64,000 nt of DNA from Coriobacteriales bacterium (GTDB taxonomy: Bacteria; Actinomycetota; Coriobacteriia; Coriobacteriales; UBA8131), in NCBI GenBank assembly GCA_031263105.1, contig JAISGJ010000173.1, positions 940-64,939 of the forward strand, in the 5' to 3' direction. Of the stretch, positions 2,595 to 30,189 are shown in pieces. The notes under the pieces are model-generated. The model had not been told where the DNA came from and ran no database searches. It was given only the letters and a program-made list of their open reading frames with translations. The position numbers and the translations under genes are program-made. Positions within the stretch are counted from its first letter, which is position 1; each line of letters opens with the position of its first letter.

Positions 2595-2595
2595 T

Positions 2596-2615: not shown

Positions 2616-2691
2616 GTGGACAAGAGAGGCAAAAGGGCTATACTGATTTTTAAGAAAGGCCGATTAGGCAAACGTCGTTTTCAAAGGCAAG

Positions 2692-4723: not shown

Positions 4724-4889
4724 TAGAATAGAAGGGCATCGTATGCGTGGGGAGCCGTGGGGCCTTCTCCCGCTCCTTCTCTGCCGTTCGTCGCGACGAA
4801 ACGCCCCGTTTCGCTATGGATTAAGGCGTTGAATATGCGTATCATCTGATGCGGGGATTAGCAAGGGCCTGTTTCAACGAAGGGGTTCC

Positions 4890-13727: not shown

Positions 13728-13861
13728 CCTACTGTCATTCCGAGCGAAGCCGAGGAATCTTTGGGCGCACCAGCGCCCAACCGGGCCAGTCGGACACTAC
13801 GTGCCCGAGGATTCTCACGCTGCGCGCCCTTGCGGGCGCTTCGCTCAGAATGACAGTGAGG
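13728..13861. repeat. short copy of the dispersed inverted-repeat element (no 60-bp module)
   Basis: Bounded by CCTACTGTCATTCCGAGCGAAGCCGAGGAATC ... GCTCAGAATGACAGTGAGG. Lies 114 bp downstream of the giant gene stop. Confidence 0.8.
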
Positions 13862-13974
13862 TGTGAGTGACCCGCTCCTTGGCCGTTGCTGACGCTATGG
13901 GCCTTTGCCACATAGGCCAAGGAGCGGTCACCTGTTTGAAGTGCCCTAAAGAGTCCGTTGCGCCGTGGCTGTGG

Positions 13975-16900
13975 TCAAGCACCTTTTTGTACGCACCTCC
14001 GCTTGGAGGGCACCTGTCTGTTTCCCGCAACAACCGTACAGAGGAGAAGGAGCAGCAGCTGGACGGCAAAGGCCGCACCTATAAGAAGCGTCCACTGGTT
14101 GATCCACGACATCGGTTGCGAAAAGTCCTCCAGCCTGAGCTCGGCCACGAGCACGAACACTCCCATGGCAAGAGCGAGGATCCTCAGAGGCGCGCCACGG
14201 CTTTTCGTCCCCGCGTCCCTCTCGCTCCCTTCGTCCGTGTCCGAGGCGGCACCGCGACGGCGAAGGATTCTGAGCAGCGCACGCGCGACGAGCCCTAGGG
14301 AGAGTATGACGGCGACTAGGGTCATGCCAAGATTGAGCAGGCTCCACGTTCCGGTGAGCTGAAGGCTGCCCAGAGGCACGCGGCCCTCAAGGATGTCGAC
14401 GATCGGGTTGCCGGTCGGCGCCTGAAGCGGCACCGGGCCGTCGCTGAGATCAAGTATCTCTGGCAGCGGGGCCAGATCGACCTCCTCCCGCGTCGATGTC
14501 GTCGTGTCCTCGGCGCTGCCCTGTTCAGACAGCGCATCGCGCGACGGGCCCGACGAATCTGTCGATGGGCCCGAGGCCTGGGCAGCGGCAGGCGTCGGGG
14601 CCGTCGGCGTTGCGGAGGCCGGCGACGGCACAGGGCCCGGGCTCACGGGCGTTCCGGGGCCTGCGGGCCCCTCCGGGCCATCCGGCACCTCTGGGCCCGG
14701 CACATCCGGCGTCTCCGGGTCAGGACCTGGCACCTCCGGCGTCTCCGGGTCAGGGTCTGGGCCTTCCGGCACCTCCGGGTCAGGGTCCGGTGTCTCCGGC
14801 ACCTCCGGGTCGGGGTCCGGGCCTTCCGGTGGCTGCGCCGCAGCGCGATGCAGGGTCGCAACACGGCTCGTGGGCACAAAGACAGAGCCCGTCTGGAGGA
14901 CGTGCACCGCCACGATGGCGCCCTCTGTCCAGGTCCCGCTTATCGAGAGGTCGTACACACCGAAGGCGACGTGGGTGAGCGTCCCGCCGTTCACGGCACC
15001 GTCACCGGAGGGGACAAGGGTGGTGTTTCCAGCGGAGAGGCCCATGACATCGCTGTCGAAGGCCAGCCGTATCCGGGTGGAGTCGACGCTTTCCGCCACG
15101 CCGTCGGCGGTTGCGGAGAGAAAGCCCACGCTCGTATCGAGCAGCACATAGAACCCGACGGTCGCAGCCGTCCCTATCCCGACGGAGAAGCCGCCCTGCT
15201 GCCAGAGGAGCCTCTGTGCCTCCCCCTCGCTCAGGACGGCCACGCTCTCCCCTTCTGCTGCAAGCTTCTGCGCCACTGCCGTCCCTGCGACGGCGCCTTC
15301 CTTGCCCGCAAGCACGAGGCAGGCGCCCTCGGCCAGATCGCCCGTTATCGTGACGGTGCGGTCTGCGGCAAGATGGATGCCGTTGTCCGCCGGCCCCACA
15401 CCGACACGGACGGCACCCGAGACGCGCATCTCGCCGGCCGACGACACGCTCACCGCGTGCCCGCCCACGTTTTCTGTGATGTCGCCGCCCGTCATCTCGA
15501 ACAGTCCGTCCATGACGGCCACACCCGCCGCGCTGTCCGCCGCGCCCGCAGAGGTCCGGTTCGCGGCGATCTCGCCGCCCTCCATGCGGAAGGTCGCGCC
15601 GTCCTGTATCTGTACGGCCGCCGTGCCCTCGGCAGACGACAGGTCGAAGAGCCGTCCGCTGTCCATGACGAAGGTCGAGCCTGCGCCGCGCAGGTCGACG
15701 CCCGCAACGCCCGTGGCGTTGTTCGCATGCAGGACGGCATCGTGCAGGACGAGGCTGCCGCCGTTGACGACCACGAGCGGCCGCGTGTTCTGCATCTCGG
15801 CATTGCCGTCGAGGCTCAGGTTGCGCAGCGTGACGGCACCGGCCTCCAGGCGCAACAGCTGGCCCGTGTAGCCTGCAGCACGCGTGAGGGAGACCTCGCC
15901 GACCGCCTCCGGGTACTTGAGGACGTCGACCGCCTTCTCGGAAAGCCCACTGGGAAAGACGATCTCCGCTCCGACCGAAAGCGAGTCCATGACGAAGATG
16001 TTGTAGTAGTCGTAGGAGGAGGTGGCCGCATATTCGAGCGCCCGCTGGATGCTCGCGTAGGGACTCGTGACGATGCCGTTGCCGCTGGAGTTGTCGCCAA
16101 GCTCCAAGGAGACATAGAGGTTGGCCACGGGCACGAGCAGGTAGGACTGCGCCGCAGGGTCGGGGACCACACGGAACTGGCCGGCCTGCCAACGGAAGTA
16201 ATCCGACTCGAGCAACGTGGCCGCAGAGCCCTCCTTGAAGGCGATGAAGGTGTTCTGTGCGGCGCCCGCCTTGCCCTCGAGGTTGATGTTCGAACCGACC
16301 TCGAGGTCGCCCGTCTGCCGAATGGCGGCATCAGGGTCGGCCAGGTACAGGCCGTTGTCGGCATCGTCGGCACCGATGCGCATGCGTCCGGCCAGCTTCA
16401 CGGTGCCGCCCTCGGCATAGATGGCGCTGCCGTAGACGCGCGGCTCGCCCTCGTCGGACGGCGCGGTGTTCCCCACAGAGGTGACATCCGCAAGCTGCAA
16501 GGTCGCATTCCTCTCATAGACGGCCCCGCCGTATGAGGCCGCACCGTTGGCCTCGAGCGTCGTGTCGCTCAGGCTCACCATGGTCGTGTCCACGCCGCCC
16601 GTCGTGTCATTCAGGTACAGGCCGCCGCCACATGCCGCCTCGTTGCCCGCGATACGGACGCCCGCGAGATCAAGCCTCACGTTTGCGCCGGTCGCCGTGT
16701 TGTTCAGATACAGTGCGCCGCCGTCGCCCGTCGCACGGTTGCCCTCCATGCGCCCGCCGTTTACCGAGACCGCCACCAAGGCGTTTGCGGCAGCGGACAC
16801 ACTGAGGGCACCGCCACATGCCGCACGGTTGTTCACGAGGCTGACGTTCGTGAGCCACAGTCGTGCCGTCTGCCAGGCTGCGACGCTTCGGATGGCGATG

Positions 16901-19900
16901 AGAGAGGCGGTGTTCAGGGCATTCTCGCTCCTGTTGCCGTCCAGCGTCAGCCCCTCGACACGCAGGGTGGCGCCCGCCACGCCCGTCTCGACCGTCAAGA
17001 AGGCGCCGTCGAAGGCATCCGTGCGCGTGAGAAGGGGCGTCGGGAAGGCCTCGGCCCAAGGCTTCAGCGCGATGTCGCGGTTCGGGCCGACCGTGGCAGT
17101 GGTCGCGATGGCGAGGTCGTCCATGACGTAGACCGTGACGGGCAGGCCCGCCGGTGCCAGGGCGCATGCGGCCGCGATGGTTCGCAGAGGATGCTCGACC
17201 GTGCCCCGGGCACCGTCGTCTCCCGTTGCAGACACGAAGAAGACGGTACGGCCTGCGAGGACGTACTGATTGTTGGCGGCATCCGCCGTTATGCAAAAGG
17301 AGCTGTTGTTTTGATAGTGGTAGAGGTCCGCCTCTGCGTCGCTCGGCGCATCGCCTGCGGTCTTGGTCGCGACGAGCACTCCGAAGCCCTCGCCTGCCTT
17401 GCTCGCGATGTTCACACGGGCACCGGTGCCCAGGTCGCCGTTTTGGACGATCGCAGAGCTCGCGGGCAGGACGATGCCGTTGTCCGTGTCGCTCGTGCCG
17501 ATGCGCACCGAACCGGACAGGGAAAGCCTTTCGTATTCGGCCTGACCCGAGAACGACACCGCCGTGCCATTGCCGGATATCGTGCCTCCGAGCAGGTTGG
17601 CGGATGCGGTATTGCGGTTGTACGAGTTGCCTTGGAGGTAGATGCCGCCGCCGCTCGTCGCCGTGTTGCCGCGTATCTCGCCGCCCTCCACGGTGATGAG
17701 GGCCTGACCGTTGCTTGAGGTCAAGGCTGTGCCGATGGCACCGCCGTTCAGCCCATGGTTGTCGATGAGCCTGCCGCTTCTCATGGTGAAGGCGGCCTTG
17801 GTGTTGTATGCCGCTCCGACAAGCACCAAGGGTTGATTGTTGGTGTCGTAGACGTCCTTTTTGCCGTCGAGCGTCACGCCGTCGAGCGTGAGGGTCGAAT
17901 TGTGGCTCACGGCGAGCAGGGCGAATCCGCTGCCCGCACGGCGTATCGTTACCTCGCCGTCGGGATCGTCGTCCAAGCCGTCTTCGTCAAGGGCCTCGGG
18001 GTCAGGGGCAAGCGTCACGTTCTTCGCGGGCACCGTCGAGGTCCCCAGCGTCGCCGTGGCGGTGGCATCGAGGTCGTCCATGACGTAGACGGTCACGGGC
18101 GTGGTCGACCAGGCGCGCTCGAAAGCGCACGCTATCGTTGCCAATGGGTTCTCCCGCGAGCCGTCGCCCGCCGTATCGTTGCCTGTACTGCCCGATACAT
18201 AGAAGTCGGTGCGGCCTGTCAGGACGTATTGCCCGCTCTCTTCCGCGCCCGGTGCCACGTACAGGGCGTTGTTGTCCTGATAGTAGTAGTGCGCGGCCTC
18301 TGGGACGTTTATCTCGTTCCCTGCGGTCTTGGTCGCTATGACCGTCCCGAAGTCCGCGCTTGCCTTGCTCGCGATATTCACGCGAGCACTGTCGGCGAGG
18401 TCGCCGTTCTGGGTGACGGTATAGTTCGCAGGAAGGACGATGCCGTTGTCGGCATTGCTCGTGCCCACCTGCACCGAGCCCGAGACGGAGACCTTCTCGT
18501 AATTTGGGCCCATGCCCAAGAAGTCCAGCGCCGTGCCGTTGCCCGTTATCGTGCCGCCCGACAGGTTGACGGAGATCGCGCCGGAATTAATGTAATTGCG
18601 TACATAGATGCCGCCGCCGATGCCGGAAGTTGCGCTATTGTCTGCAATCTCACCGGCAGTGAGATTCAGGGCAGGATTCCCATAATAGTCGTAAAGGTAC
18701 ACGCCGCCGCCGCGCAGTGCAGTGTTTTCCTTGAGCGCGACGCCGGAAAGATTCAGGGCAGGCGCAGAGGATTCGGTGCTGATATAGATGCCGCCGCCGC
18801 CGCTACCGGCGTTAGAGCCGCCTGGGGCCACAAGACCGCCAGCCTTGTTATGCGAGATGTCTCCGCCGGAAAGATTCAACGCCATTGTTCCTCTGGAGCG
18901 TACATACAGGGCACCGCCGCTATCGACTGCGGTATTGTTCTCAATTTCGCCGCCTGTGAGGTTCAGGGTCACCGGTCCCTGATAGTTTTCGAGATAGATG
19001 CCGCCGCCGGCATTCGCGGTATTATCGGAAATCTCACCACCCTCTATAGTGATGACGACCTGGCGGGAGCTGTTGTCGGCATACGTATAGATGGCGCCGC
19101 CGTTTGCACCGTCGTTGCTGACGAGCCGACCGCTTTTCATGATAAAGGTCGTGGTGTTGTTGACCGCAGGGCTGGCGTCGACCAAGGGCTTGTTGTTGTC
19201 GGGGTAGATGTTCCTGGCGCCGTCAAGCGTCACCCCGTCAAGCGTGAGGGTCGCACCGCCCTGAACGGCTATCATGGCAAACCCGTCGGCTGCGCGCGTC
19301 ACGGTGACCTCGCCGTCCGGGTCATCTTCAAAGCCGTCCGCATCCAGCGCCTCGGGGTCGGGGGCGAGCGTCACATTCTTGCCCGCAGTCAGCGTCGCCA
19401 TGGAGCTGATGTCCATGTCGTCCATGACGTAGACGGTCACCGGCGCGGTCGTCCAGGCGCGCGTGAAAGCGTGGGAGAGCGTCTCGAAGGGCTTCGCCCG
19501 AGAGCCGTCGCCCGTCACGTCATTGCCTCCGCTCGATACATAGAAGTCCAGACTGCCCGTCAGGATATAGCGGTCGTTATCCGCGTCGGGAACCACGCGC
19601 AGGGAGTTGTTGGATTGGTAGTGGTAGCAGAGCGCTTCATCGGCATCGGGCTTCTCGCCGTCCACTTTGTTTGCCAGGACGACACCGTAGTCCTCGTCCC
19701 CCTTGCTTTTGATGTTGACGTGCGCGTCTGTGCCCAGATCGCCGTCCTGGGTGACGGTGTAGCCGACGGGCAGGACGATGCCGTTGTCAGTATTGTCTTC
19801 GCCGACGCGCATCGAGTCCGAGATACGGAGTTGGTTGTAGGGTGCGGACGCCGCACCTGAACCGGAGAAGGCCACCGCCTCCCCGTTACCGCCTATCGTA

Positions 19901-22900
19901 CCGCCCATGAGGCGTACGATGTTGAGCGCATATGCGGAACCTCCGGCGATATAGATGCCGCCACCGCTCGCCGCGCTGTTGTCCTCTATCGCAACATCGC
20001 GCTGGCAGAGCTCGGATTTGACAGGATTGGAAGCGTAGTTGCTGCCTACTCCGACGTAGATGCCGCCGCCGTTGCCCGCCGCCGTGTTGTTTGCAATCAG
20101 GCCTTTGTCAAGGTTTATGGCAGCCGTCGACGTGTTGGAGCTATTGACGTATATCCCGCCGCCGCCGTAGGTGGGGCTGCCGGTGCCGGTCGTGGTGTTG
20201 TAGGTTATATCACTGCCATCAAGGGTCAGGATCGCCGTTGCCCGGTCATTGTTGACGCTGACCCCGCCGCCGCTGTTAATGGCCGTATTGCCGGTGATCT
20301 CGCCGCCGTTAAGGTTCAGGCTAAACGTCCCTCCTCCGTAACTATAGTTCGTGCCGTAGCCGATACCACCGCCGTTGGTGGCCGTATTGCCGCTTATCTC
20401 TCCATCGTTTATGGTGACGACGACCGAACTGGAGGAGCCACTGGTCTCCGCAAGGACGGCGCCGCCTGAGTTGCCTCCCTTGTTGTTTGTAAGCTTGCCG
20501 CTTTCCATCGTAAAGGTGGCCGGCGAGCCGTTCGTTGCGATCCATATCAGCGGCTGGTTGTTGTTGGTGTAGGTGTTCTTTTTGCCGTCGAGCGTCACGC
20601 CGTCGAGCGTGAAGGTCGCACCGCTGCCAACCGTGATCATCGCAAAGCCAGTCGCCGCCCGGCTCACGGTCACGCCGTCCGGGTCGTAAGCCGGGTCATC
20701 CACATCCAGGGCCGCAGGGTCGGGAACGAGCCTCACGCTCTTGTTCGCAGCCAGCGTCGCCGTGGAGTCGGCATCGATGTCGTCCATGACATAGACGGTC
20801 ACCGGAGTGACGGCGGAAGCAACCGCAAAGGCCTTCGCAATTGTCAGGAAGGGCTCCTCCCTGCTGCCAAAGCCGGTCTCGTCACTGCCCGTGCTCTTTA
20901 CGTAGAGTTCCGAGACGGCGCTCAAGATATAGGTGTTGTTGTCCATGTCTTCCACTATGTGAACCAGGGGCGATTCGAGCCACAGATAGAGCGCCGCCTC
21001 CCCGGCGCTGACGGGCCCTCCGTCGGACTTCTCTGCGATGACCGTGCCCGCATCCGCGCTCATCTTGCCCTCGACGTTTATGCGCGCGTCGGTGTCAAGG
21101 TCGTCCTTTTGGGCGATGGTCAGGTTTGTGCGCAGGTAGATGCCGTTGTCCGTATCGTCCGCCCCGATATGAGGGCTGCCCTTTACGCGCAGCGTGCCGC
21201 CGTGATGGTCGATGGCTGCGCCGAGGGTGGCGGTGTTTCCCGTGATGAGCCCGCCGCTTATCTCGGCTGTTCCATTAAGGTAGATGGCACCGCCCTCCGT
21301 GGCGTGGTTGTTTGCGAGCACGCCGCTTTCGAGGACGAAGGTCCCGCCGACCCTGACAAGCGATTTGGTGTTCGCCGCAAAGTCCGCATCATCGCCGGCG
21401 CCGTCGAGCGTCACGTCGCGCCAAGTGAGTTTTCCGTCTGCCTGCACCAGGTTGATGTCATTCGCCGTGCGCGTGACGGTGATGTCTGCGGGGTCGCCGC
21501 CCGCATCCGGGTCGGCCTGCACCGTGATGGTCTTGCCGCTTATGACGGTGGCGGGCGCGGGAGCGACCGTGTCGTCCATGACGTAGACGTCCGAGGATGC
21601 GCCCGGCGCGGCTACGTCAAAGGCACGCGCGAGCGTCTTGAAGGGATAGGCCTTCGTGCCGTCGCCGCCTCTGTCGTCGCCGCTGCCGCTCACGTAGAGG
21701 GCGCTCGGGCGCTGCAGGACGTACTGCCTCGTGCTCTGCGGGACGATGCGCAGGTCGCCGGGGCCCTGCCAGTGGTAATGCGCCGCCTCTGGATCGTTGA
21801 CATTCACGCCGTTCGCCGTCTTGCTTGCGATGAGGGAGTTGGTTGCGATGTCTGCCCGGTCCTCGATGACGATGAAGGCGCCGCCGCCCAGGTCGCCGTC
21901 ATGGGAGATGGTCATGCCGGTATTCAGATAGACGCCGTTGTCCGTGGCGCTCGCGCCGATGTGCGGCGAGCCTTTCACGCGCAGGACAGAGGATGTGCCG
22001 CTGTGGTAGATGGCCGCGCCGATCATGGCGGTGTTTCCCGTTATGAGCCCGCCGCTTATCTCGGCTACAGCGTTGTCGCCCAGCGCTATGGCACCGCCGT
22101 TCGTCGCCTTGTTGCCCTCTATCGTCGTGCCGGTGAGGGACAGCGAGGAACTCTGGTAGCGGTTCGAGTAAAGGTAGACGGCACCGCCGTTTGCTGCCTC
22201 GTTGTCGTGTATGCTGCCGCCCCTCAGCTCGATCGTCACAAGGGGAACCGAGCCCCAACTGGTATAGCCGTCCCCCCGGATGGCGCCGCCGTCCTTTCCG
22301 TGGTTGTTTCGTATCTCGCCGTCTTCCAAAATAAAGGCAGCGGTGCCTGTGGCGTTCCCGGCATTGACGTACACCGCCGGAAACTCGTTCTCGGGGCAGG
22401 CTGCCTTTGCGCCGTCGAGGATGAGGCCGTCAAGCGTGAGTACGCCGCCGTTTTGTACTTCGAGCAGCGCAAAGCCCTCCGCCGTGCGCGTGGCGGTGAC
22501 GTCCGCCGGGGCCCCGGGGTCGTCGTCAGGCCTCAAGACGATGTTCTTGCCCGCTGTCACCACGGCGGTCACGGAAACGTCTATATCGTCCATCACATAG
22601 ACCGTGCTGCAATCATCGGGGTTGCCAGGATCGTCTGGAAGCGCCATCCTGAAGGCCTTCGCCAACGTCGCAAAGGGATGGGCGCGGCTTCCGTCGCCGC
22701 TCACGTCGTCGCCGTGTGCACTGACGTAGAGCCCGGCCCCGCCCTGCAGGACGTACTGCTGCGACGTACCGGAGGGCACGATGCCCACGGATGCCGGGCC
22801 CTGCCATACGTAGTGGGCCGCCTCTTCGGGAGAAACGGTTGCGCCGTCGGCCTTGTCCGCGATGACGCTCCCCGCGCTCGAGCCGGGCTTGTCCTCTATG

Positions 22901-25900
22901 ACGACGAGGGCGTCCGCTTCGAGGTCGCCCTGCTGCTTGACCGTGAACGTCTCTGCGGGCAGATAGACGCCGTTGTCCGAAGCGCTCGTGCCGATTTGAA
23001 TGGAGGCGCCCACATACAGCAGCTGCGCAGAGTGGTAAGCGCCCTCCTGGAAACCGACCGCTCCGCCGTGCCCGCCTGCGCCCACGGTATTGCCCGTGAT
23101 CACGCCTCCCGTGAGGACTGCGCGGGCGCCGGCGGCGTTGCTGTAGTTATAGGCGCTTCCCAGGTAGACGCCGCCGCCGTTCGAGGCCGTATTGCCGCTG
23201 ACCGTACCGCCTGTCTGATAGAAGTAGGCCGGGGAACCGGTGTTCACAAAGTAGACCGGCGCTCCATAGGCGTACACGCCGCCGCCGACCCCTGACGCCG
23301 TGTTGTCTCGTATGACGCCGTCCCCCTCCAACCGAACCGCTACCGTCGAGGCACCGGAATACGTGTTGTTGAAAACGTAGGCACCGCCGCCATTGGCCGC
23401 ATCGTTGCCGTATATCTCGCCGCCCTTGATAAGGGCGGTCGCGTTGGCAGGGTCGGGATAGGCTATTGTAGCGATTGCTTCTACCCGTAGCGCGCCGCCG
23501 TTTGTCGCGTGGTTGTTTGTGAGCGCGCCGCCCAACATGGTAAAGAGCGCCGGTTGGCCGTTGGAATTGATGTTGTTCAAACTGCCATTGACGTGTATGA
23601 GAGGCTCGGTATTCGTCGGATAGGCGGTTTTATTCCCATCTATCGTCACGTCGACAAGGGTGAGCGATGCACCCGCCTGTGTGCTCGAATTCACCCGTAT
23701 AAGGGCGGCGTTATCCACGGTGCGGACGAGCCTTACCGTGCCGGGAGCAGCCTGGGGATCTTCGGCGAGCACTATGTTCCTGCCGCCGGCGACCTCCGCC
23801 GTCGCAGGGACCTCGACCTCGTCCATGATGTAGACGGTCGTCTTTTCCGCTGCGGGCGACGCCGCCGCAAACGCGCGGCTTATGGTCTTGAAGGGTCTCG
23901 CGCGATTGCCGAGGCCGTCCGCGTCGTCGCCGACGCTCGATACATAGAACTCCGGCTCGCCGCTGAGGATGTAGGAGGAGGGCGCCAGGGCCTTTACGCT
24001 CAGCCCGTTGCCGGGCTGCCAAAGGTACGCGGCGGCTTCCGTGTCGGAGACCTCCGCATCGCTTTTCGTGACGAGCAGCGTGCCAACGTTCGCGTCCGGC
24101 TTGCCCTCGATGTTCACGCGGGCGCCCTCGTCCGCAAACGAGCCGCTCTGGTTGACCTTGTAGGCGCCCGCAGGCAGGTAGACGCCGTTGTCAGCGCCTG
24201 TCGTGCCGATCGTCACCGAACCGCCTACGTAGAGAAGCTGCTGCGTAGGCAAGGAGCCCGCAAAGCCGACCGCCGTGCCTCTGCCGGCGGGGTCGGTGAC
24301 CGTATTGCCCGTCACGCTCCCGCCTGTGAGGCGGGCGGTGGCGATGGCGTTCGAGCCGCCTGCGGACACATAGAGGCCCCCGCCGTTACGGGCGCTGTTG
24401 CCACAGACCGTGCCTCCCGTCTGAGCGAAGGCGGTCGCACGTTGGGCGCCGGCGTTCAGAAAGACGCCGCCGCCTGCCGCACCCGTGCCTCCGACGACGA
24501 CGTTGCCCTGTATCGCGCCGCCGTCCATGGTGCAGGAGACGTTCCCCGCAAGAGAGACACCGCCGCCGCCAAAGGCCGACGCGCTGGCACTCTCCGCCCT
24601 GTTGCCGCTGATGGCCGTGCCCTCCAGGCTGACATATGACTCATGGCCGGCATAGGAGCCTGTCGCGCTCACGTACATGCCTCCGCCGTTGCCGTTTGCC
24701 GCAACGTTACCGGTGATGCTGCCGCCCCTCAGGGCGATCTGAAGCGAGGTGTTCCCCCAGTCCGCCTCCGCGACGAGGGCGCCGCCGTTGCCGGCGCGAT
24801 TGTTTTTCAGGGTCCCGCTTTCCATCGTGAACCGAGCGGACGCACCGGTGCTGCTGCCGGGAGAGACGGTGACCAATGACGTGGTGTTGCCGGCATAGGT
24901 CTCTTTGGCGCCGTCTATCGTCAGATCCTCGAGCGTAAGCCTGCCGTCGGCACCCACCTGCAAAAGGGTGCTCGATGTGCCGCGCGTGAGCGTCACGGGC
25001 ATGACCGTCTCAGGGTCCGGGTCGGCACGCAGGACGATGTTCCTGTTCGCCAAGACCGCCGCCGTCGCCGCAACCGTGACGTCGTCCATCACGTTGACCG
25101 TCGACTGCGCCGTCAGCGAAGCCGTCTCAAAGGCGCGTCGCAGCGTCGCAAAGGGATGGTCCCGCGAGCCGTCGCCCGCTGTATCGTTGCCGCCGCCGGC
25201 CTCGCTCTTGACATATATCGTCTTCAGGCCGTCGATGACGTAGGTGGTGCCGTCGCCCGCAGGCTGTGCGGCGATGCGCTGTAGGGGGCTTGCCTGCCAA
25301 TGGTAGCGGTCCTCCTCTTCGACCGTGGCGGCTCCGCCGTCCGTCCGGGTGGCAATGACCGTGCCGAGCGCGTTGGGGCTGCCTGTCCTGCCTTCGATGT
25401 TGATCCGCGCCTCTGCCCCGAGGTCGCCGCTCTGAGCGATGCTGCTCGCAGCTCCATACGCGAAGAAGATGCCGTTGTCGGTATCGCTCGTGCCCACCTG
25501 CGGGCTTCCGCTCACCGTGATGAGGTTCACGGCGTTTTGCGCCTGATAGACAGCTGCACCGCGATCGGCGGGGGCCGTATTGTTCGTGATGACGCCGCCC
25601 GTGAGCGTTGCCCGTGCGCCTGCGCCCGTCAGGTAGACGGCACCGCCGTACTGGGTGGCCGTGTTGCCGTCTATCTCGCCGCCCTCCACGTCGACCTGCG
25701 CCCTGCCCGTCGTCGCGCTCACGCTCACGGCACCGCCGTTCACGGCCCTGTTGCCGCGCATCTCGCCGCTGCGCAGGACAAAACGTGCCGTGGCGCTCGG
25801 TATCGAGGCCCGCACCGTGACCGGCGAGGAGGCGTTCGAGACGTTGTTTCTCAAGGATGCGCCGTCAAGAACCACCTCTGCGACAGCGTCTGCCGTGTTG

Positions 25901-28734
25901 CCCTGGACCTCTACAAGGGGGCCGGCGTTCGTTGCCACCGCACCGTTGCCGTCCAGCGCCACGTCGCCGAGCGTCAGCGTCGCCGACCCCGAAACCGAGA
26001 GCATGGTGCCCGTGAAGCCGGCGGCGCGCCGTATCTCGACCTCCTCCTCGTCTGTGGCAAGGCGCATGAGACGTGCCGCCTTTGAGTCCGACAGCACGGC
26101 GGTTTGGGCGTGCGCCAGGTCGTCCATGACCACGACGGCGGCGGGCGTGTCTTCCTCCACCGCAGAGAAGGCCTTGGCTATCGTGGCATAGGGCTTCTCT
26201 TTCGTGCCGAGGCCCGTCGTGTCGTTGCCCCAGGATGCGACATAGATGGTCGCGGCACCGGGCCCGAAGACATAGCTGTTCGCCTCGGTCTCGGGCAGGA
26301 TGGAGAAGTCCTGGTAGAGATAGTAGACGCGCTCTGCCTCCGTCTCGTTCACGGCCGCTCCGCCCTGCTTGGTGGCGACGACCGTGCCGATGCCGGCGTT
26401 CGCCTTGTTCTCCACGCAGAGCATGCCGCCTGTGGGGATGTCGCCTTCAAGGGTGAGGGAGAGGTTCTGCGAGCCGAAGAGGATGCCCTCCGTCCCCGCG
26501 CTGTCCCCAATGACGACCGTGCCCTTCACGACGAGCTCCGGTGCCTGCGCTCCTTCGCCGAAGAGGTACAGGGCCCCGCCCATGCGCTCGGGCGCACGGT
26601 TGCCGCGTATGACGGTGCCCTCGTCGGCAACGAGGCGGCTGCCTCCCACGAGCGACACGCCGCCGCCGGTGAGGCTCGTGACGTTGCGCGTGATCGCCGT
26701 GTGGCGCGTGACGACTTCGGAGCCACCCTCTATCCTCAGCGCGGAGAGGCTGTTGGGAACCTCCTCGCCGTCGATGATGAGCGTGTCGAGCGCGAGCTTT
26801 GCTCCGCCTCGTACCTGGATGATATGCTGCCCGAAGTCCCCACGGCGTATTGTGGCAGGGCCTGCCTCGGCACCTGCCCAGGTGCACACCGTGACGTCGC
26901 CCTCGTTCAGGATGGCGATTGCGCGCTCGGTGACGCTTGACTTCACGTGGACGACACAGGCGACGCCCGCACCGCGCGGCAGTTCCTCGAACACGCGCGT
27001 AAGGGTCGCGAAGGGCCGGTCGAGCGAGCCTTTGCCAACGGCGTCGCTGCCGCCCTCCGCTTCTCCCGCGAGGTAGAAGTCGGTCTCGTGCACCGCAAGG
27101 ACGCAATCGCCCGCACTGCCGCCTGTGCCCGCAACGGCTTTATAGGCGATGGTCTGCCAGAAAAAGGCGGCCACGTCGCCGGCGGTCAGCCCCCCGCCCG
27201 GCTTCGTCGCAATCCGCCGCCCCACCCGTGCATCCTGATGGTTCTCGATATTGACATGCGCAGAGGCGCCGAGCGTCCCGGCGATGGTCAGCAGGGCGTT
27301 TGACGAGAGATAGATGCCGTTGTCGTCGTTTGCCGCGCCGACGCGCACGTCGCCTGAGAGGCTCATGGTGCCGGAGTAGAAGTAGACGCCCGAGCCGCCC
27401 TGCGTGGCGGTGTTGCCGGTGATGGTGCCGCCGGCCATGTCGAAGCGCGCCGCGTCGCCCATCACATAGACGCCGCCGCCCATGCCGGCGACGGTGTTGT
27501 TCCGTATCGTCGTGTCGTTCATGGCGAAGCTGCCATAGACCGCGACGGCGGCGTTCGAGCCGACGACCTGGCTGCCGTCGATGGTGAGGCCTTCGAGGGC
27601 GAGGGCGTTGCCGTTTGCGACATGCAGCAGGAAGCCATGGTAGCTCTGCGCGTCGTTGCCCGCATCCCGGTGGCGCGTGAGCGTGAGGGGGGCCATGCTG
27701 CCGGGAGCCCTCTTGAGGGCGATGCTGCGGGCGGGGATGCCCTTGGCCGGCGAGCCCGCGACGGTCGCCTCGCTCGCCAGCGTGAGGTCGTCCATAACGT
27801 AGACGGTGGCTACGGCGGCAGCCTCCTCGAAGGCCTTTCCCAGCGTGGCATAGGGATTCTGCTTCGTGCCGTTGCCGGCGTCGTCGTCGCCTGCGGAACC
27901 CACGTAGAGCTCCGACGCGTTGCCGGCACTGTCGAGGGGGCTTATGGAGGCAGGAGCGAACCTGTCGAGGGCTTCGGCAGAAGAGAGGGCGCCCCCTGCG
28001 GAACCGGGAGCCGTTTCGATGGGGTTGGAGGACGGCGCGTCTCCTGCCGGGCCGGGGCCGACGGACACGTCGGGCAAGGCGGCGGACTCGACGGGCCGGT
28101 CGGGCCGAGCAGGCTGGTCGGGCCGGTCGCTGCCCCCCTCACGGGAGGGATCGGGGGCCTCGATGCCGCCTGCGGCGCTGTCTGCGTCGGCATCGGCGCC
28201 AGAGCCGCTGGACGGCACGTCGCCGACGATGGGCATGTCGTCGTCTACAGAGACGTCCCCAGCAGCATCGGCGGGGCCGGCGGGGGCGGCGGCATCGGCG
28301 GGGCCGGCGGCCTCCTCCTCGGCGCCTGAAGGCACGGGGGGCTCGGCAGCATCGGCAGGCTCAGGCGAGCCGCCCGCAGGGGAAGAGGAATCGCCCTGCG
28401 TCCCGCTCCCACCGGAATCGCTGCCTGGGACAACAGGGTCAGAGGAGGCGGATCCGTCGTCCGAAGAAGAGGCGGCGACGTCGTCCGCAGGGCTGCCCGA
28501 TGCAGAGGTGCCCGGACCGAACTGCGCCGTCGCCACAAAGAACGCAAGCAGGAGACAGAGGGCGGAGCGGAGCACCCTCTGCGCAGACGCCCTACGCCTT
28601 GCCCGTGGCTTCCCGGGCACCGCACGTGCAGGGCGCACCGCCTGCGTCCCTGGCACCGTATGCGCCTGAGCCGGCCCTTGCCCCTTGGGCGCCGTCCACG
28701 GCTCGCTTGGCTCCAGCATCGTCTCCCTAGTCAT
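13975..28734 (-). CDS. giant (4,919 aa) secreted beta-helix-repeat cell-surface protein, putative adhesin
   Basis: Uninterrupted 14.76-kb ORF with SD AAGGGGG 5 nt before the ATG. The N-terminal basic region plus hydrophobic helix (RSALCLLLAFFVATAQF) looks like a signal peptide. There are 12 tandem modules of about 265-450 aa. Each opens with a P[FY]ATL..AF...VYVMDD segment and then Gly/Asn-rich turns (GGAIY, GNTA, NGGG) typical of right-handed parallel beta-helix / Pmp-type repeats. Each closes with VG..DTDNGIYL...GDL...ARVNIE. A PDPDPE-type proline linker and hydrophobic C-terminal segments follow. Confidence 0.9.
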   Translation of the reverse strand: MTRETMLEPSEPWTAPKGQGPAQAHTVPGTQAVRPARAVPGKPRARRRASAQRVLRSALCLLLAFFVATAQFGPGTSASGSPADDVAASSSDDGSASSDPVVPGSDSGGSGTQGDSSSPAGGSPEPADAAEPPVPSGAEEEAAGPADAAAPAGPADAAGDVSVDDDMPIVGDVPSSGSGADADADSAAGGIEAPDPSREGGSDRPDQPARPDRPVESAALPDVSVGPGPAGDAPSSNPIETAPGSAGGALSSAEALDRFAPASISPLDSAGNASELYVGSAGDDDAGNGTKQNPYATLGKAFEEAAAVATVYVMDDLTLASEATVAGSPAKGIPARSIALKRAPGSMAPLTLTRHRDAGNDAQSYHGFLLHVANGNALALEGLTIDGSQVVGSNAAVAVYGSFAMNDTTIRNNTVAGMGGGVYVMGDAARFDMAGGTITGNTATQGGSGVYFYSGTMSLSGDVRVGAANDDNGIYLSSNALLTIAGTLGASAHVNIENHQDARVGRRIATKPGGGLTAGDVAAFFWQTIAYKAVAGTGGSAGDCVLAVHETDFYLAGEAEGGSDAVGKGSLDRPFATLTRVFEELPRGAGVACVVHVKSSVTERAIAILNEGDVTVCTWAGAEAGPATIRRGDFGQHIIQVRGGAKLALDTLIIDGEEVPNSLSALRIEGGSEVVTRHTAITRNVTSLTGGGVSLVGGSRLVADEGTVIRGNRAPERMGGALYLFGEGAQAPELVVKGTVVIGDSAGTEGILFGSQNLSLTLEGDIPTGGMLCVENKANAGIGTVVATKQGGAAVNETEAERVYYLYQDFSILPETEANSYVFGPGAATIYVASWGNDTTGLGTKEKPYATIAKAFSAVEEDTPAAVVVMDDLAHAQTAVLSDSKAARLMRLATDEEEVEIRRAAGFTGTMLSVSGSATLTLGDVALDGNGAVATNAGPLVEVQGNTADAVAEVVLDGASLRNNVSNASSPVTVRASIPSATARFVLRSGEMRGNRAVNGGAVSVSATTGRAQVDVEGGEIDGNTATQYGGAVYLTGAGARATLTGGVITNNTAPADRGAAVYQAQNAVNLITVSGSPQVGTSDTDNGIFFAYGAASSIAQSGDLGAEARINIEGRTGSPNALGTVIATRTDGGAATVEEEDRYHWQASPLQRIAAQPAGDGTTYVIDGLKTIYVKSEAGGGNDTAGDGSRDHPFATLRRAFETASLTAQSTVNVMDDVTVAATAAVLANRNIVLRADPDPETVMPVTLTRGTSSTLLQVGADGRLTLEDLTIDGAKETYAGNTTSLVTVSPGSSTGASARFTMESGTLKNNRAGNGGALVAEADWGNTSLQIALRGGSITGNVAANGNGGGMYVSATGSYAGHESYVSLEGTAISGNRAESASASAFGGGGVSLAGNVSCTMDGGAIQGNVVVGGTGAAGGGVFLNAGAQRATAFAQTGGTVCGNSARNGGGLYVSAGGSNAIATARLTGGSVTGNTVTDPAGRGTAVGFAGSLPTQQLLYVGGSVTIGTTGADNGVYLPAGAYKVNQSGSFADEGARVNIEGKPDANVGTLLVTKSDAEVSDTEAAAYLWQPGNGLSVKALAPSSYILSGEPEFYVSSVGDDADGLGNRARPFKTISRAFAAASPAAEKTTVYIMDEVEVPATAEVAGGRNIVLAEDPQAAPGTVRLVRTVDNAALIRVNSSTQAGASLTLVDVTIDGNKTAYPTNTEPLIHVNGSLNNINSNGQPALFTMLGGALTNNHATNGGALRVEAIATIAYPDPANATALIKGGEIYGNDAANGGGAYVFNNTYSGASTVAVRLEGDGVIRDNTASGVGGGVYAYGAPVYFVNTGSPAYFYQTGGTVSGNTASNGGGVYLGSAYNYSNAAGARAVLTGGVITGNTVGAGGHGGAVGFQEGAYHSAQLLYVGASIQIGTSASDNGVYLPAETFTVKQQGDLEADALVVIEDKPGSSAGSVIADKADGATVSPEEAAHYVWQGPASVGIVPSGTSQQYVLQGGAGLYVSAHGDDVSGDGSRAHPFATLAKAFRMALPDDPGNPDDCSTVYVMDDIDVSVTAVVTAGKNIVLRPDDDPGAPADVTATRTAEGFALLEVQNGGVLTLDGLILDGAKAACPENEFPAVYVNAGNATGTAAFILEDGEIRNNHGKDGGAIRGDGYTSWGSVPLVTIELRGGSIHDNEAANGGAVYLYSNRYQSSSLSLTGTTIEGNKATNGGAIALGDNAVAEISGGLITGNTAMIGAAIYHSGTSSVLRVKGSPHIGASATDNGVYLNTGMTISHDGDLGGGAFIVIEDRADIATNSLIASKTANGVNVNDPEAAHYHWQGPGDLRIVPQSTRQYVLQRPSALYVSGSGDDRGGDGTKAYPFKTLARAFDVAAPGASSDVYVMDDTVAPAPATVISGKTITVQADPDAGGDPADITVTRTANDINLVQADGKLTWRDVTLDGAGDDADFAANTKSLVRVGGTFVLESGVLANNHATEGGAIYLNGTAEISGGLITGNTATLGAAIDHHGGTLRVKGSPHIGADDTDNGIYLRTNLTIAQKDDLDTDARINVEGKMSADAGTVIAEKSDGGPVSAGEAALYLWLESPLVHIVEDMDNNTYILSAVSELYVKSTGSDETGFGSREEPFLTIAKAFAVASAVTPVTVYVMDDIDADSTATLAANKSVRLVPDPAALDVDDPAYDPDGVTVSRAATGFAMITVGSGATFTLDGVTLDGKKNTYTNNNQPLIWIATNGSPATFTMESGKLTNNKGGNSGGAVLAETSGSSSSVVVTINDGEISGNTATNGGGIGYGTNYSYGGGTFSLNLNGGEITGNTAINSGGGVSVNNDRATAILTLDGSDITYNTTTGTGSPTYGGGGIYVNSSNTSTAAINLDKGLIANNTAAGNGGGIYVGVGSNYASNPVKSELCQRDVAIEDNSAASGGGIYIAGGSAYALNIVRLMGGTIGGNGEAVAFSGSGAASAPYNQLRISDSMRVGEDNTDNGIVLPVGYTVTQDGDLGTDAHVNIKSKGDEDYGVVLANKVDGEKPDADEALCYHYQSNNSLRVVPDADNDRYILTGSLDFYVSSGGNDVTGDGSRAKPFETLSHAFTRAWTTAPVTVYVMDDMDISSMATLTAGKNVTLAPDPEALDADGFEDDPDGEVTVTRAADGFAMIAVQGGATLTLDGVTLDGARNIYPDNNKPLVDASPAVNNTTTFIMKSGRLVSNDGANGGAIYTYADNSSRQVVITIEGGEISDNTANAGGGIYLENYQGPVTLNLTGGEIENNTAVDSGGALYVRSRGTMALNLSGGDISHNKAGGLVAPGGSNAGSGGGGIYISTESSAPALNLSGVALKENTALRGGGVYLYDYYGNPALNLTAGEIADNSATSGIGGGIYVRNYINSGAISVNLSGGTITGNGTALDFLGMGPNYEKVSVSGSVQVGTSNADNGIVLPANYTVTQNGDLADSARVNIASKASADFGTVIATKTAGNEINVPEAAHYYYQDNNALYVAPGAEESGQYVLTGRTDFYVSGSTGNDTAGDGSRENPLATIACAFERAWSTTPVTVYVMDDLDATATATLGTSTVPAKNVTLAPDPEALDEDGLDDDPDGEVTIRRAGSGFALLAVSHNSTLTLDGVTLDGKKDVYDTNNQPLVLVGAAYNTKAAFTMRSGRLIDNHGLNGGAIGTALTSSNGQALITVEGGEIRGNTATSGGGIYLQGNSYNRNTASANLLGGTISGNGTAVSFSGQAEYERLSLSGSVRIGTSDTDNGIVLPASSAIVQNGDLGTGARVNIASKAGEGFGVLVATKTAGDAPSDAEADLYHYQNNSSFCITADAANNQYVLAGRTVFFVSATGDDGARGTVEHPLRTIAAACALAPAGLPVTVYVMDDLAIATTATVGPNRDIALKPWAEAFPTPLLTRTDAFDGAFLTVETGVAGATLRVEGLTLDGNRSENALNTASLIAIRSVAAWQTARLWLTNVSLVNNRAACGGALSVSAAANALVAVSVNGGRMEGNRATGDGGALYLNNTATGANVRLDLAGVRIAGNEAACGGGLYLNDTTGGVDTTMVSLSDTTLEANGAASYGGAVYERNATLQLADVTSVGNTAPSDEGEPRVYGSAIYAEGGTVKLAGRMRIGADDADNGLYLADPDAAIRQTGDLEVGSNINLEGKAGAAQNTFIAFKEGSAATLLESDYFRWQAGQFRVVPDPAAQSYLLVPVANLYVSLELGDNSSGNGIVTSPYASIQRALEYAATSSYDYYNIFVMDSLSVGAEIVFPSGLSEKAVDVLKYPEAVGEVSLTRAAGYTGQLLRLEAGAVTLRNLSLDGNAEMQNTRPLVVVNGGSLVLHDAVLHANNATGVAGVDLRGAGSTFVMDSGRLFDLSSAEGTAAVQIQDGATFRMEGGEIAANRTSAGAADSAAGVAVMDGLFEMTGGDITENVGGHAVSVSSAGEMRVSGAVRVGVGPADNGIHLAADRTVTITGDLAEGACLVLAGKEGAVAGTAVAQKLAAEGESVAVLSEGEAQRLLWQQGGFSVGIGTAATVGFYVLLDTSVGFLSATADGVAESVDSTRIRLAFDSDVMGLSAGNTTLVPSGDGAVNGGTLTHVAFGVYDLSISGTWTEGAIVAVHVLQTGSVFVPTSRVATLHRAAAQPPEGPDPDPEVPETPDPDPEVPEGPDPDPETPEVPGPDPETPDVPGPEVPDGPEGPAGPGTPVSPGPVPSPASATPTAPTPAAAQASGPSTDSSGPSRDALSEQGSAEDTTTSTREEVDLAPLPEILDLSDGPVPLQAPTGNPIVDILEGRVPLGSLQLTGTWSLLNLGMTLVAVILSLGLVARALLRILRRRGAASDTDEGSERDAGTKSRGAPLRILALAMGVFVLVAELRLEDFSQPMSWINQWTLLIGAAFAVQLLLLLLCTVVAGNRQVPSKRRCVQKGA
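14560..14838 (-). repeat. proline-rich PE/PD tandem-repeat linker inside the giant gene
   Basis: Encodes PPEGPDPDPEVPETPDPDPEVPEGPDPDPETPEVPGPDPETPDVPG... The nucleotide sequence is visibly reiterated (CACCTCCGGGTCAGGGTC units). Confidence 0.8.
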
Positions 28735-28787
28735 GGTTGCCCCCTTGTCGCATCGTCACGTCGTCTCTGTTGCCTCGTTGCCGAAGG

Positions 28788-30047
28788 TCAGGCCCGCGTA
28801 TCCAGAAGCGCGGGATCGACCTCGAAATCCCGATAGAGCCTGACGGTGTTGCCGCCGATATCCGTCAAGCTGAAGTGCAGGGTGTAGACACCGCCCGCGC
28901 GTCTCTGGAGCAGTTCCCTGAGCTCGGCGCTCGCATCGTCTCCGACACCTGCGGCAACCGTCTCGCCGTTGGCATCGGTTATCGTCCAGGTCGCATCCCT
29001 GTCGCCGACCGACAGGCGCTCCAGCGCCACACCACGGGGATTGACATGGTTGTCGCCGTTGTCGCCTTCAAGGAACGTGATCTCGCGGCCCTTTATCCAG
29101 TCGCCTTCCACGCTGCTCGGCACCTGCTGCTGGTACGGATAAGGCCCCGGGTCTGCGTCTGGGGCCGCACGCTCTGCCTTGACGAGATCCGGGAGCACGG
29201 CCGCCCCGACGACCACGAGGGCGGCACCGAGGACACCCGCCGCGACCTTGGCCGCAAGCGCCGCATTGAGCATGCTGGCCGCCTTGACGGCGACAGGGAA
29301 CGACATGGTCTCAAAAGCCGCTGTCCATTGCCGCTCGAAATGGGCAAGGCGTTCGGCGGGGACCAGTTTGTCGGCCTGCTGCTGGAACATGCGCCCGAGC
29401 ACTGTTGTGGAAGCAAGGTTGCCGACGGTGCCGCTGCCGAGGACGCCGGTGAGAGCGGCCGGCTTCGTCTGCTCGCCCTCCGCATCGTGTTCCAGGGCGT
29501 CCTTGATCATGTCCCGCGCCCGCGAGATGTTCGAAGCAACCGCCCCCATCGACCGTCCCGTCGCGTCGGCGATCTCCTGATAGCTCATGTCCTCGTAGTA
29601 ATACATCAGTATCGCCTCGCGCCGTTTTGGCGGCAGCGCAAGGACGATCTCGTAGAGCCTGTCGCTCAGGAGCTCGTTTTCCATATACGCCTCAGGGAGG
29701 AATTCCATGTCGAGCTCCACGATCTCGTCGCGGACGGCCTCGTCGTCTATGTTCAACTCACCCCCTTGTCTGCCCCGCTTGCGCAGAAACCGATAGCACG
29801 TGTTCTGGACGATCCTCTGTATCCACGCATGGATCGCCGCCGGTGTCTTGAGTGCCCGGATATTGGTGAACATCGAGAGGATGACTTCCTGCGCGACATC
29901 CTCGGCAGCATGAAAATCCCCGAGGATCGTCAGGGCACTGAAGATGATATCCTTTTGTTTGCACCGGCACAGCTCCTCAAAAGCCTTCTTGTCGCCCCTG
30001 ATGGCTTTCCCGGCCAGCACCTCGATTTCACGTTTACCCATACCCAC
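28788..30047 (-). CDS. ECF (sigma-70 family group IV) sigma factor fused to a transmembrane helix and an extracytoplasmic C-terminal domain
   Basis: Residues 1-190 carry sigma region 2 (DVAQEVILSMF..., HAWIQRIVQN) and region 4 (ILMYYYEDMSYQEIADATGRSMGAVASNISRAR). A linker and one TM helix (AAKVAAGVLGAALVVVGAAVL) follow, then about 135 aa outside. The stop lies 53 nt upstream of the giant gene start. Confidence 0.85.
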   Translation of the reverse strand: MGMGKREIEVLAGKAIRGDKKAFEELCRCKQKDIIFSALTILGDFHAAEDVAQEVILSMFTNIRALKTPAAIHAWIQRIVQNTCYRFLRKRGRQGGELNIDDEAVRDEIVELDMEFLPEAYMENELLSDRLYEIVLALPPKRREAILMYYYEDMSYQEIADATGRSMGAVASNISRARDMIKDALEHDAEGEQTKPAALTGVLGSGTVGNLASTTVLGRMFQQQADKLVPAERLAHFERQWTAAFETMSFPVAVKAASMLNAALAAKVAAGVLGAALVVVGAAVLPDLVKAERAAPDADPGPYPYQQQVPSSVEGDWIKGREITFLEGDNGDNHVNPRGVALERLSVGDRDATWTITDANGETVAAGVGDDASAELRELLQRRAGGVYTLHFSLTDIGGNTVRLYRDFEVDPALLDTRA

Positions 30048-30189
30048 CGTATTCGCTTGTACTCTCTAAGACCCTTTTTCTTTGAAGTTTCTTGCTTCAA
30101 AAACAAAAAACACAGGTTTCTGACGGTTTGCCCCTGCCTGTTGCCATAATCCCACGGTGCCCGGCAAAACGCGAGAGTACGGGAATGGC

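Follow-up and report, generated by a model that had tools for sequence, protein, structure and literature searches.

A stretch of 64,000 nucleotides (nt) from a Coriobacteriales bacterium (assembly GCA_031263105.1, contig JAISGJ010000173.1, positions 940-64,939; hereafter the window, that is, the whole stretch of DNA that was analysed, from whose start all coordinates are counted) harbors two adjacent genes, coding for an extracytoplasmic function (ECF) sigma factor with a membrane-spanning extension and for a giant surface protein. Their arrangement raises the question of whether a single protein might both sense the outside of the cell and drive the expression of the adhesin encoded next to it. 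The reading that we favor, with a probability of roughly 0.6, is that the sigma factor and its own anti-sigma factor are joined in one chain, and that an extracellular cue would lead to the proteolytic release of the sigma domain and to the transcription of its own operon, including the giant adhesin. The genes lie as follows (aa, amino acids):

28788..30047, minus strand: gene of the putative ECF sigma/anti-sigma fusion, with 419 aa if it starts at the GTG (30047) and 417 aa if it starts at the ATG (30041)
28735..28787, minus strand: intergenic spacer of 53 nt, with the Shine-Dalgarno sequence AAGGGGG at 28740-28746
13975..28734, minus strand: gene of the giant surface protein, 4,919 aa from its ATG (MDR1015071.1, annotated as "hypothetical protein")

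The sigma protein is on public record as MDR1015072.1 ("RNA polymerase sigma factor"), with the ATG at 30041 taken as its start and a length of 417 aa, and both this annotation and the family alignment favor that start codon; the two public records belong to one genome bin labelled Coriobacteriales. The 53-nt spacer, with its Shine-Dalgarno sequence ahead of the ATG of the giant gene, is as described in an earlier reading of the same sequence (the first-pass annotation), whereas the A+T-rich gap on the 5' side of the sigma gene, given there as 143 nt, measures 142 nt (30048-30189). The genes adjoining the sigma gene are an acyltransferase gene and the giant one.

The first point to be settled is what kind of protein the sigma gene encodes. 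Its parts are:

29769..29948, minus strand: sigma region 2 (aa 34-93; Pfam PF04542, 40.7 bits)
29478..29663, minus strand: sigma region 4 (aa 129-190; Pfam PF08281, r4_2, matching aa 129-179 with 62.1 bits)
29310..29402, minus strand: two cytoplasmic linker helices (aa 216-246), candidate in-cis anti-sigma element
29175..29273, minus strand: single Ala/Gly-rich transmembrane segment (aa 259-291; hydropathy scan and predicted helix)
28803..29114, minus strand: predicted extracytoplasmic immunoglobulin (Ig)-like beta-sandwich sensor domain (aa 312-415; predicted local distance difference test, pLDDT, 79-92)

The 419-aa open reading frame (ORF) had been described as combining complete sigma regions 2 and 4 with a linker and one transmembrane segment, and this is in agreement with Pfam, with TIGR02937 (the ECF superfamily model, 81.1 bits versus a cut-off of 42.9), with hydropathy and with an AlphaFold2 model. 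No Pfam match to sigma region 3 was found in the protein, regions 1.1 and 3 being absent as for ECF (group 4) factors, and the 24 specific NCBIfam sigma models shown all fell under their cut-offs (the best, TIGR02985, with 93.6 versus 126.4). The protein is an intact ECF (group 4) sigma factor followed by a C-terminal extension. In the AlphaFold2 model, which was built from 16 homologues, the sigma part matches SigW, AlgU, CnrH and sigma-E structures with a Foldseek probability of 1.0; its sigma2 and sigma4 domains have a template modelling score (TM-score) of 0.77-0.81 to ECF factors bound to an anti-sigma (SigW/RsiW, CnrH/CnrY, RpoE/NepR) versus 0.35-0.45 to holoenzyme-bound forms. Between sigma4 and the linker helices the model has a disordered stretch (aa 194-211), and the helices themselves, with a pLDDT of ~90 amid disordered flanks, carry the family motif AS.TVLGRV..QQADK.VP...FE..W, which is kept in the 16 homologues, all of them fused forms. 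No Pfam match occurs past aa 190 and no Cys in aa 191-258, and neither a zinc-finger (H-x3-C-x2-C) nor a FecR N-terminal-type anti-sigma domain was recognised in the cytoplasmic linker. As for the extracytoplasmic domain, which was expected to span ~135 aa, a domain outside the cell is indeed predicted, but its folded part amounts to ~105 aa and follows a disordered spacer of ~20 aa. Its Foldseek matches are weak and Ig-like only (CopC, SiiE BIg, GbpA), and its family motif is I.F.GGDC.CGH.NP, the window copy having Asn at both Cys positions.

The strongest evidence on the role of the C-terminal half comes from its distribution among other proteins. A HMMER search with aa 195-419 against 1.84 billion representative proteins matched 114 clusters: in about 65 of them, sigma fusions of 345-600 aa, the query aligns to the C-terminal half of the protein; another ~15 comprise very large repeat proteins that align only to the second half of the outside domain and contain adhesin-type Ig repeats (LapB, OmpL47 repeats; one of these proteins has an LPXTG anchor domain); and at least five are complete proteins of ~250 aa, consisting of a cytoplasmic N-terminus, a transmembrane helix and the same outside domain, GDC.C.H.NP included. 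Two of the short proteins were placed in their genomic context: the gene of P0077 shares 17 nt with the 3' end of a distinct ECF sigma gene of 202 aa, which scores 186 bits with the family model, and that of P0083 overlaps a truncated sigma ORF (92 bits with the same model). Since one sigma clade and its sensor domain are found both split and fused, the C-terminal half is best seen as an anti-sigma-type sensor, and the 417/419-aa protein is, on comparative grounds, a fused ECF sigma/anti-sigma factor. The first-pass annotation was right that no separate anti-sigma gene exists here: it is absent because the anti-sigma appears to be fused to the sigma, the split overlapping gene pairs offering the term of comparison. 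These pairs (loci L102 and L103) have in common with the window protein the outside domain (GDCDC.H.NP) and the sigma clade, as seen from the DFLPE and YYYEDxSYKEI motifs and from a family-model score of 186 bits, but they consist of two overlapping genes, on contigs that end before any target gene, and no similarity was detected between the cytoplasmic part of their anti-sigma and the fused linker. A by-eye "K-x-L/V-P" match between the linker and the split anti-sigmas was discarded, and P0025 (208 aa, beginning exactly at the linker) was rejected as a natural split, being a fragment at a contig edge.

Full-length homologues of the sigma protein number 16, with 35-49% identity; their sources are metagenomes and genome bins that carry the label Clostridiales or Eubacteriales Family XIII. 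The first-pass annotation mentioned ECF factors with transmembrane extensions as known in Actinobacteria; such groups do exist there, but they are not confined to that phylum, and the family of the window protein is, judging from its sequences, mostly clostridial.

The second point concerns what the sigma factor might transcribe. The regions of 220 nt preceding 18 sigma genes were given to a Gibbs sampler, which returned the consensus GagGCAGtAAAntT-N10-GnGTCTat (short form GCAGtAAA-N14-GTCTAT), an ECF-like -35/-10 pair located 16-50 nt ahead of the start codon in at least 12 of the 18 regions. The corresponding site of the window is:

30067..30098, minus strand: predicted sigma-dependent (autoregulatory) ECF-type promoter, GAAGCAAGAAACTTCAAAGAAAAAGGGTCTTA, with the -35-like element GCAAGAAAC at 30087-30095 and the -10-like element GTCTTA at 30067-30072, separated by 19 nt from the GTG and by 25 nt from the ATG

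With a leave-one-out matrix this site scores 23.0 bits, versus 12.3 for the next best among ~128,000 positions and 22.1 for the best of 20 shuffled windows, and it is the only match of at least 14 bits in the 64-kb window. Sites of the same type are also found ahead of partner genes that stand apart from their sigma gene, with 21.4 bits in L013 and 14.3-15.5 bits in L011, L012 and L019, against a background of 24 matches of at least 14 bits in ~2.2 Mb (scan of all loci). Neither the 53-nt gap nor the sigma gene at its 3' end contains a second sigma-type site of at least 9 bits, and scans of the gap revealed no terminator and no sigma-70-type promoter; a gap with neither such a motif nor a terminator makes co-transcription likely. 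The presence of the motif before both the sigma genes and the separated partner genes supports autoregulation as well as a sigma-dependent expression of the adhesins, and it lends sequence-level support to the earlier proposal of a sensor-sigma driving its own adhesin. An autoregulated sigma-adhesin operon is likely the simplest reading of these data. One bin (Hs463_bin27) harbors at least five paralogous fused sigma genes (in L011, L017, L019 and, with two genes, L018), and the very similar promoter motifs of these paralogues raise the question of cross-talk between cassettes. Besides, in L010/L003 a sigma-type site of 14.8 bits (1444-1475, minus strand) lies upstream of a divergent gene coding for a 289-aa protein with a transglutaminase core, which may be an alternative target in the one well-covered family locus without an adhesin.

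The putative target of the window sigma factor is organized as follows:

28519..28575, minus strand: N-terminal signal-peptide hydrophobic core (aa 54-72), behind an Arg-rich n-region
15145..27909, minus strand: twelve divergent right-handed beta-helix modules (aa 276-4530), of 264-454 aa each
14455..15144, minus strand: single beta-rich domain (aa 4531-4632), then a stalk rich in Pro and Glu with a low-complexity spacer behind it (aa 4633-4760), read from the translation
13978..14454, minus strand: C-terminal FILTED membrane anchor, with the pre-anchor motif G.VPLG..W, the transmembrane (TM) segment TM1 (4797-4825), a charged loop, TM2 (4848-4868), LEDFSQPMSWINQWT and TM3 (4880-4905)
13867..13932, minus strand: G+C-rich hairpin with an 18-bp stem, 43 nt past the giant stop codon, read from the sequence

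The first-pass annotation described a secreted protein made of 12 divergent beta-helix modules, which a phmmer self-search, the alignment and the predicted fold of module 7 bear out, while the three-TM anchor at the C-terminus had been overlooked. The modules start at aa 276, 561, 830, 1179, 1596, 2002, 2345, 2610, 3064, 3511, 3832 and 4206 (phmmer self-search and alignment); they are 29-48% identical to module 7 and alignable end to end, all 12 in frame. For module 7, AlphaFold2 gives a right-handed beta-helix in which short strands recur regularly (pLDDT 94.6; predicted TM-score, pTM, 0.92), and the best-scoring Foldseek matches of this module, with E-values of 1e-3 or weaker, are nearly all beta-helix proteins, including rhamnogalacturonan lyase, Rhombotarget A, pectin methylesterases, tailspikes, pertactin and the Hap and EspC passengers; a profile search likewise gave weak matches to Rhombotarget A and a PL6 lyase. 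The giant contains 20 GGA[IVL] and 13 GGG[IVL]Y motifs. No Pfam family matched it at E <= 0.01, the Pmp repeat model (Chlam_PMP) included, and a few of its remote sequence relatives carry PF13229 or PF02415; the beta-rich domain and stalk region (aa 4531-4760) gave no family match. The anchor (aa 4797-4899) matches NCBIfam NF052597, named FILTED, with 50.9 bits versus a cut-off of 40. When used alone as query against a word-indexed protein database, the FILTED domain of the giant had no match at E <= 0.001, and our literature search retrieved no paper describing the NF052597 domain. The hairpin behind the stop codon is possibly a terminator lacking a U-tract; a simple terminator scan did not call it.

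In the light of chlamydial Pmp and autotransporter passengers, with which the giant shares a right-handed parallel beta-helix of GGA(I/V/L)-type coils, the label "Pmp-like" originally given to it holds as a resemblance only: there is no match to Chlam_PMP (PF02415), no C-terminal beta-barrel and no outer membrane, the protein ends with the three-TM FILTED anchor, and it is built of twelve capped modules in series instead of one continuous helix.

The third point is whether the pairing is conserved. To this purpose 19 family loci were read, and a cassette composed of a fused sigma and a large adhesin is found again in some twelve further uncultured bacteria, with the following arrangements:

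window, L008, L013, L022, L026 and L104: large FILTED gene (above the NCBIfam cut-off) directly downstream, on the same strand
L001 and L019: FILTED gene 2-2.6 kb downstream, with inserted toxin-antitoxin or other genes in between
L012 and L020: downstream gene (at least 3,125 aa or at least 1,213 aa) running off the contig, its C-terminus lying beyond it
L024: partner of 1,834 aa with a sortase-type end
L007, L018 and L023: FILTED gene immediately upstream of the sigma gene, which suggests tandem cassettes
L010, L014 and the second sigma gene of L018: no adjacent adhesin
five contigs: contig end less than 400 nt past the sigma gene

That five contigs end just after the sigma gene may be explained by the repetitive gene expected next. 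FILTED genes adjoin 11 of the 14 informative family loci versus none of 62 control loci with other ECF sigma factors (Fisher p = 6e-11), and the FILTED scores of the partner proteins range from 49.6 to 110.9 bits. The passenger regions of the partners are mutually unrelated, and comprise DUF11 together with a thioester domain (TED), BspA-type LRR, Flg_new repeats, pAdhesive_6 and beta-helix modules; the anchor is the sole region in common between the giant and the partners encoded in L008, L001 and L007. A conserved beta-helix partner was hence rejected, given that the partners carry other domains, that the giant of L012 is unrelated and that the nearest beta-helix homologue has no sigma gene. 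The conserved feature is, from these comparisons, a class of large adhesins, usually with a FILTED anchor, so that the pairing first noticed in the window stands across the family loci, but not with its beta-helix passenger. The fused sigma and the large adhesin appear, at the level of sequence, as a conserved multi-copy module of a small group of gut-type Clostridia and of one Coriobacteriales-labelled bin.

Some of the partner genes show irregular reading frames. In L019 (~13247-13420) the apparent ATG start of the FILTED gene is followed by a signal peptide, but soon afterwards the frame is broken by a run of about ten G, which could represent either a phase-variable tract or a sequencing error. 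In L104 (5004-11346), a 584-aa fused sigma is followed by an 875-aa pAdhesive_6 ORF that shares 20 nt with a 1,244-aa Flg_new/FILTED ORF; these two ORFs may together form one adhesin of ~2,100 aa, either frameshifted or produced via programmed frameshifting. A metagenome scan with a four-sequence FILTED alignment as query retrieved mainly giant or tandem FILTED genes with their upstream ends cut off. The loci L096, L097, L098, L099 and L100 (metagenome contigs Ga0123353 and Ga0123356) harbor tandem very large FILTED genes (from at least 1,100 to more than 3,000 aa), several of them with apparent frameshifts just ahead of the anchor, and no sigma gene in between.

An analogous cassette exists in two cultured Eggerthellaceae, Raoultibacter timonensis (L032, 10001-16212) and R. 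massiliensis (L031, 10001-16088). Their ECF sigma factors (425/424 aa) have a transmembrane helix and an unrelated outside domain, and the sigma gene shares 4 nt with the beginning of a gene coding for a 1,645-aa LRR_5/SdrD_B/Big_6 adhesin (split into 937 and 668 aa in L031) that terminates with LVRTG, a transmembrane segment and the basic tail RSRRKKR. The general design is therefore broader than the FILTED-linked family, and it is accessible to experiments.

On this basis, a scenario for the working of the cassette can be proposed. The sigma2-sigma4 part would lie in the cytoplasm, followed by the two-helix linker and the one transmembrane helix, with the Ig-like sensor outside the cell. At rest, the sigma would be kept at the membrane in a closed and inactive form, held by the linker helices. 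An extracellular cue acting on the Ig-like domain might then lead to a site-1 cleavage, followed by an intramembrane cleavage freeing the sigma domain, on the model of RsiW, RseA, RsgI and the fused IutY (PMC8999054, PMC10328401). The free sigma would take RNA polymerase to its own promoter (30067-30098), a target suggested by the comparative evidence, and the transcript would include the sigma gene and the 4,919-aa adhesin gene 53 nt further on, so that the signal would both amplify the sensor and make the adhesin. The giant would be exported via its signal peptide and expose its 12 beta-helix modules on the Pro-rich stalk, with the three-TM FILTED anchor in the membrane.

Several observations weigh against this scenario. 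When compared with the N-terminal parts of the split anti-sigmas, the fused linker gave no significant match (E = 0.7-5), and it has no zinc-finger or other known anti-sigma domain; its inhibitory role is therefore inferred from conservation and from the AlphaFold2 model of 16 sequences, and AlphaFold2 is inclined to compact ECF models in any case. The replacement by Asn/Asn of the Cys pair, which most relatives keep, implies that the signal perceived by the window protein may differ from that of its relatives, or be lost. With the exception of L013, the promoter matches of the partner genes are close to the background threshold. The loci L010 and L014 and one sigma gene of L018 lack an adjacent adhesin. 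L106, the locus of the closest beta-helix homologue, has no sigma gene, no motif and a sigma-70-like promoter, and in 12 other metagenome contigs, many of them cut at the 5' ends of the genes, FILTED genes occur with no sigma nearby; the reverse association, according to which FILTED would imply a sigma, was rejected on account of these contigs. Co-transcription, autoregulation and proteolysis are what we infer from sequence and comparison.

An alternative that we regard as rather unlikely is that the sigma is never cleaved but stays tethered to the membrane and recruits RNA polymerase there, coupling transcription, translation and export of the adhesin in a manner similar to membrane-bound regulators of the ToxR/CadC type and to transertion, with the outside domain acting through conformation or oligomerisation. 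The disordered stretch of ~20 residues (aa 194-211) could give some reach to a tethered sigma, the fusion is strictly kept in the ~65 clusters, the partner is nearly always a very large exported protein, and no conserved protease gene is found among the neighbourhoods examined; site-2 proteases are, however, usually encoded elsewhere, so that their absence nearby says little. Moreover, IutY, the sole fused sigma/anti-sigma with a characterised activation, needs proteolysis by Prc/RseP, and the same has been proposed for SCO4117 (PMC8999054). The split homologues have an ordinary sigma/anti-sigma layout, implying that the membrane part inhibits rather than activates, and the modelled sigma is closed, as is typical of inhibited complexes.

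It is also unlikely that the two genes are mere neighbours, the giant being regulated on its own, for instance via the flanking HD-GYP/cyclic di-GMP (c-di-GMP) genes, and the sigma having its targets elsewhere. The three sigma genes without an adhesin, the many FILTED genes and the beta-helix homologue without a sigma, and the HD_5 genes flanking both the window locus and L001 would fit this idea. Nevertheless, the enrichment in adjacency (11/14 versus 0/62) extends across divergent sigma sub-families and differing passenger domains, the sigma-type promoter is repeated before separated partner genes (21.4 bits in L013), and the 53-nt gap of the window has no detectable promoter or terminator of its own.

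A further possibility, likewise unlikely, is that the cassette is an adhesion-sensing feedback unit, in which the outside domain, being similar to an adhesin-type Ig repeat, monitors its own partner adhesin. The FILTED anchor has a conserved loop outside the cell (LxDxSQPMxWINQWT) through which sensing might occur, another possible input being the load on a substrate-bound adhesin. If this were the case, attachment would release the sigma and boost that very adhesin, paralogous cassettes would let the cell pick its adhesins according to the surface met, and the whole would represent the adhesin counterpart of the substrate-sensing SigI/RsgI sets.

Finally, metagenome assembly or a frameshift might have produced a false fusion, or a false giant ORF, out of two separate genes, but this is very improbable since, although both genes lie on one genome-bin contig, the giant is on record from one contig only and its start differs between NCBI (4,919 aa) and JGI (4,786 aa), the same architecture occurs in ~65 independent fused homologues, the sigma gene is identical in NCBI, JGI and Logan, both ORFs have a codon-position GC typical of coding sequences in a genome of ~65% GC (over the full 14.8 kb in the case of the giant), and the 12 modules are all in frame. 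The DNA repeats within the giant gene share at most 87% identity over less than 240 nt, which makes an assembly collapse unlikely, and the NCBI start is the more plausible one because that of JGI would cut off the signal peptide.

As regards the surroundings of the two genes, no Rfam match was found across 12-32 kb of the window. On either side of the pair are genes of the HD-GYP type (HD_5) and an Hpt gene (12482-13570, 31640-32275 and 32293-33453, all on the minus strand), and in L001 a receiver-HD_5 gene and a hybrid kinase gene are likewise located downstream of the adhesin, which suggests that c-di-GMP signalling genes travel with the cassette; the HD_5 proteins of the window and of L001 are only 34% similar, that is, at the domain level, and the synteny of the two loci is loose, with his and HD_5 genes near both. 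Between the giant gene and the HD_5 gene lies an inverted repeat (13741-13858, minus strand: TGTCATTCTGAGCGAAGC ... GCTTCGCTCGGAATGACAG, with arms ~100 nt apart), longer than the hairpin behind the giant stop codon and resembling a small repeat element. Positions 1-4000 of the window have a G+C content of ~53%, versus 62-72% elsewhere in it, and may be foreign or otherwise distinct DNA.

A comparison with known systems helps to place the window protein. Fused transmembrane sigma/anti-sigma ECF factors have been described already, namely IutY (ECF243) and the actinobacterial ECF48, ECF52 and ECF53 (PMC8999054, PMC7826278). IutY of Pseudomonas putida, whose sigma domain is freed by the Prc and RseP cleavages (PMC8999054), is similar to the window protein in having, in one chain, an N-terminal ECF sigma, one transmembrane helix and an extracytoplasmic sensor, with no separate anti-sigma gene. 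However, it is proteobacterial, has a FecR-like outside part, receives its signal from a TonB-dependent receptor and controls siderophore uptake, whereas the window protein belongs to a gut-type Gram-positive organism with a single membrane, has an Ig-like beta-sandwich sensor with no FecR domain detected, and would target an adhesin. The transmembrane C-terminal extensions of ECF48, ECF52 and ECF53 (e.g., SCO4117), for which proteolytic activation has been proposed (PMC8999054, PMC5826349), share with it the succession of ECF sigma, cytoplasmic linker, transmembrane helix (one or two in those groups), spacer (Pro-rich there) and extracytoplasmic domain. They carry, in contrast, a zinc-finger (ZAS-like) anti-sigma domain and, in ECF52, also a carbohydrate-binding domain, while the linker of the window protein has no Cys/His zinc-finger motif, its outside domain is different and its relatives are almost all from Clostridia. 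We know of no dedicated adhesin partner for ECF48, ECF52 or ECF53.

A resemblance of a purely functional kind links it to SigI/RsgI of cellulolytic Clostridia, which form paralogue sets with autoregulated promoters and signal through regulated proteolysis (PMC10328401, PMC12203970): in both cases several sensor-sigma units with differing outside domains occur per genome, each beside a different large surface component. Yet SigI is not an ECF factor, in RsgI the anti-sigma domain lies at the N-terminus of a separate polypeptide and the targets are cellulosomal, unlike the fused ECF factor and the adhesin target proposed here, and SigI or RsgI models are absent among the Pfam and NCBIfam matches of the window proteins. 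The first-pass annotation knew of no described pairing of such a sigma with a giant Pmp-like protein, and our literature searches likewise found no description of a fused sigma paired with a large adhesin.

If our reading is correct, the cassette would extend the fused sigma/anti-sigma regulators, so far mainly from Actinobacteria with one case in Pseudomonas, to Clostridia and Coriobacteriia, as an apparently undescribed variant with a new sensor domain for this class and a dedicated adhesin partner. It would also put the unpublished FILTED anchor into a functional context for the first time, and its promoter motif might be used for mapping regulons in genome bins. Self-contained sigma switches of this kind are of interest as orthogonal parts for synthetic biology, and the presence of an analogous sigma-adhesin pair in the cultured Raoultibacter makes experiments feasible. 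Very large adhesins are costly to make, and, to our knowledge, little is known on how gut anaerobes decide when to make them; the cassette may represent a compact and testable answer, in which one protein would sense the outside of the cell and be, at the same time, the transcription factor for the adjoining adhesin.

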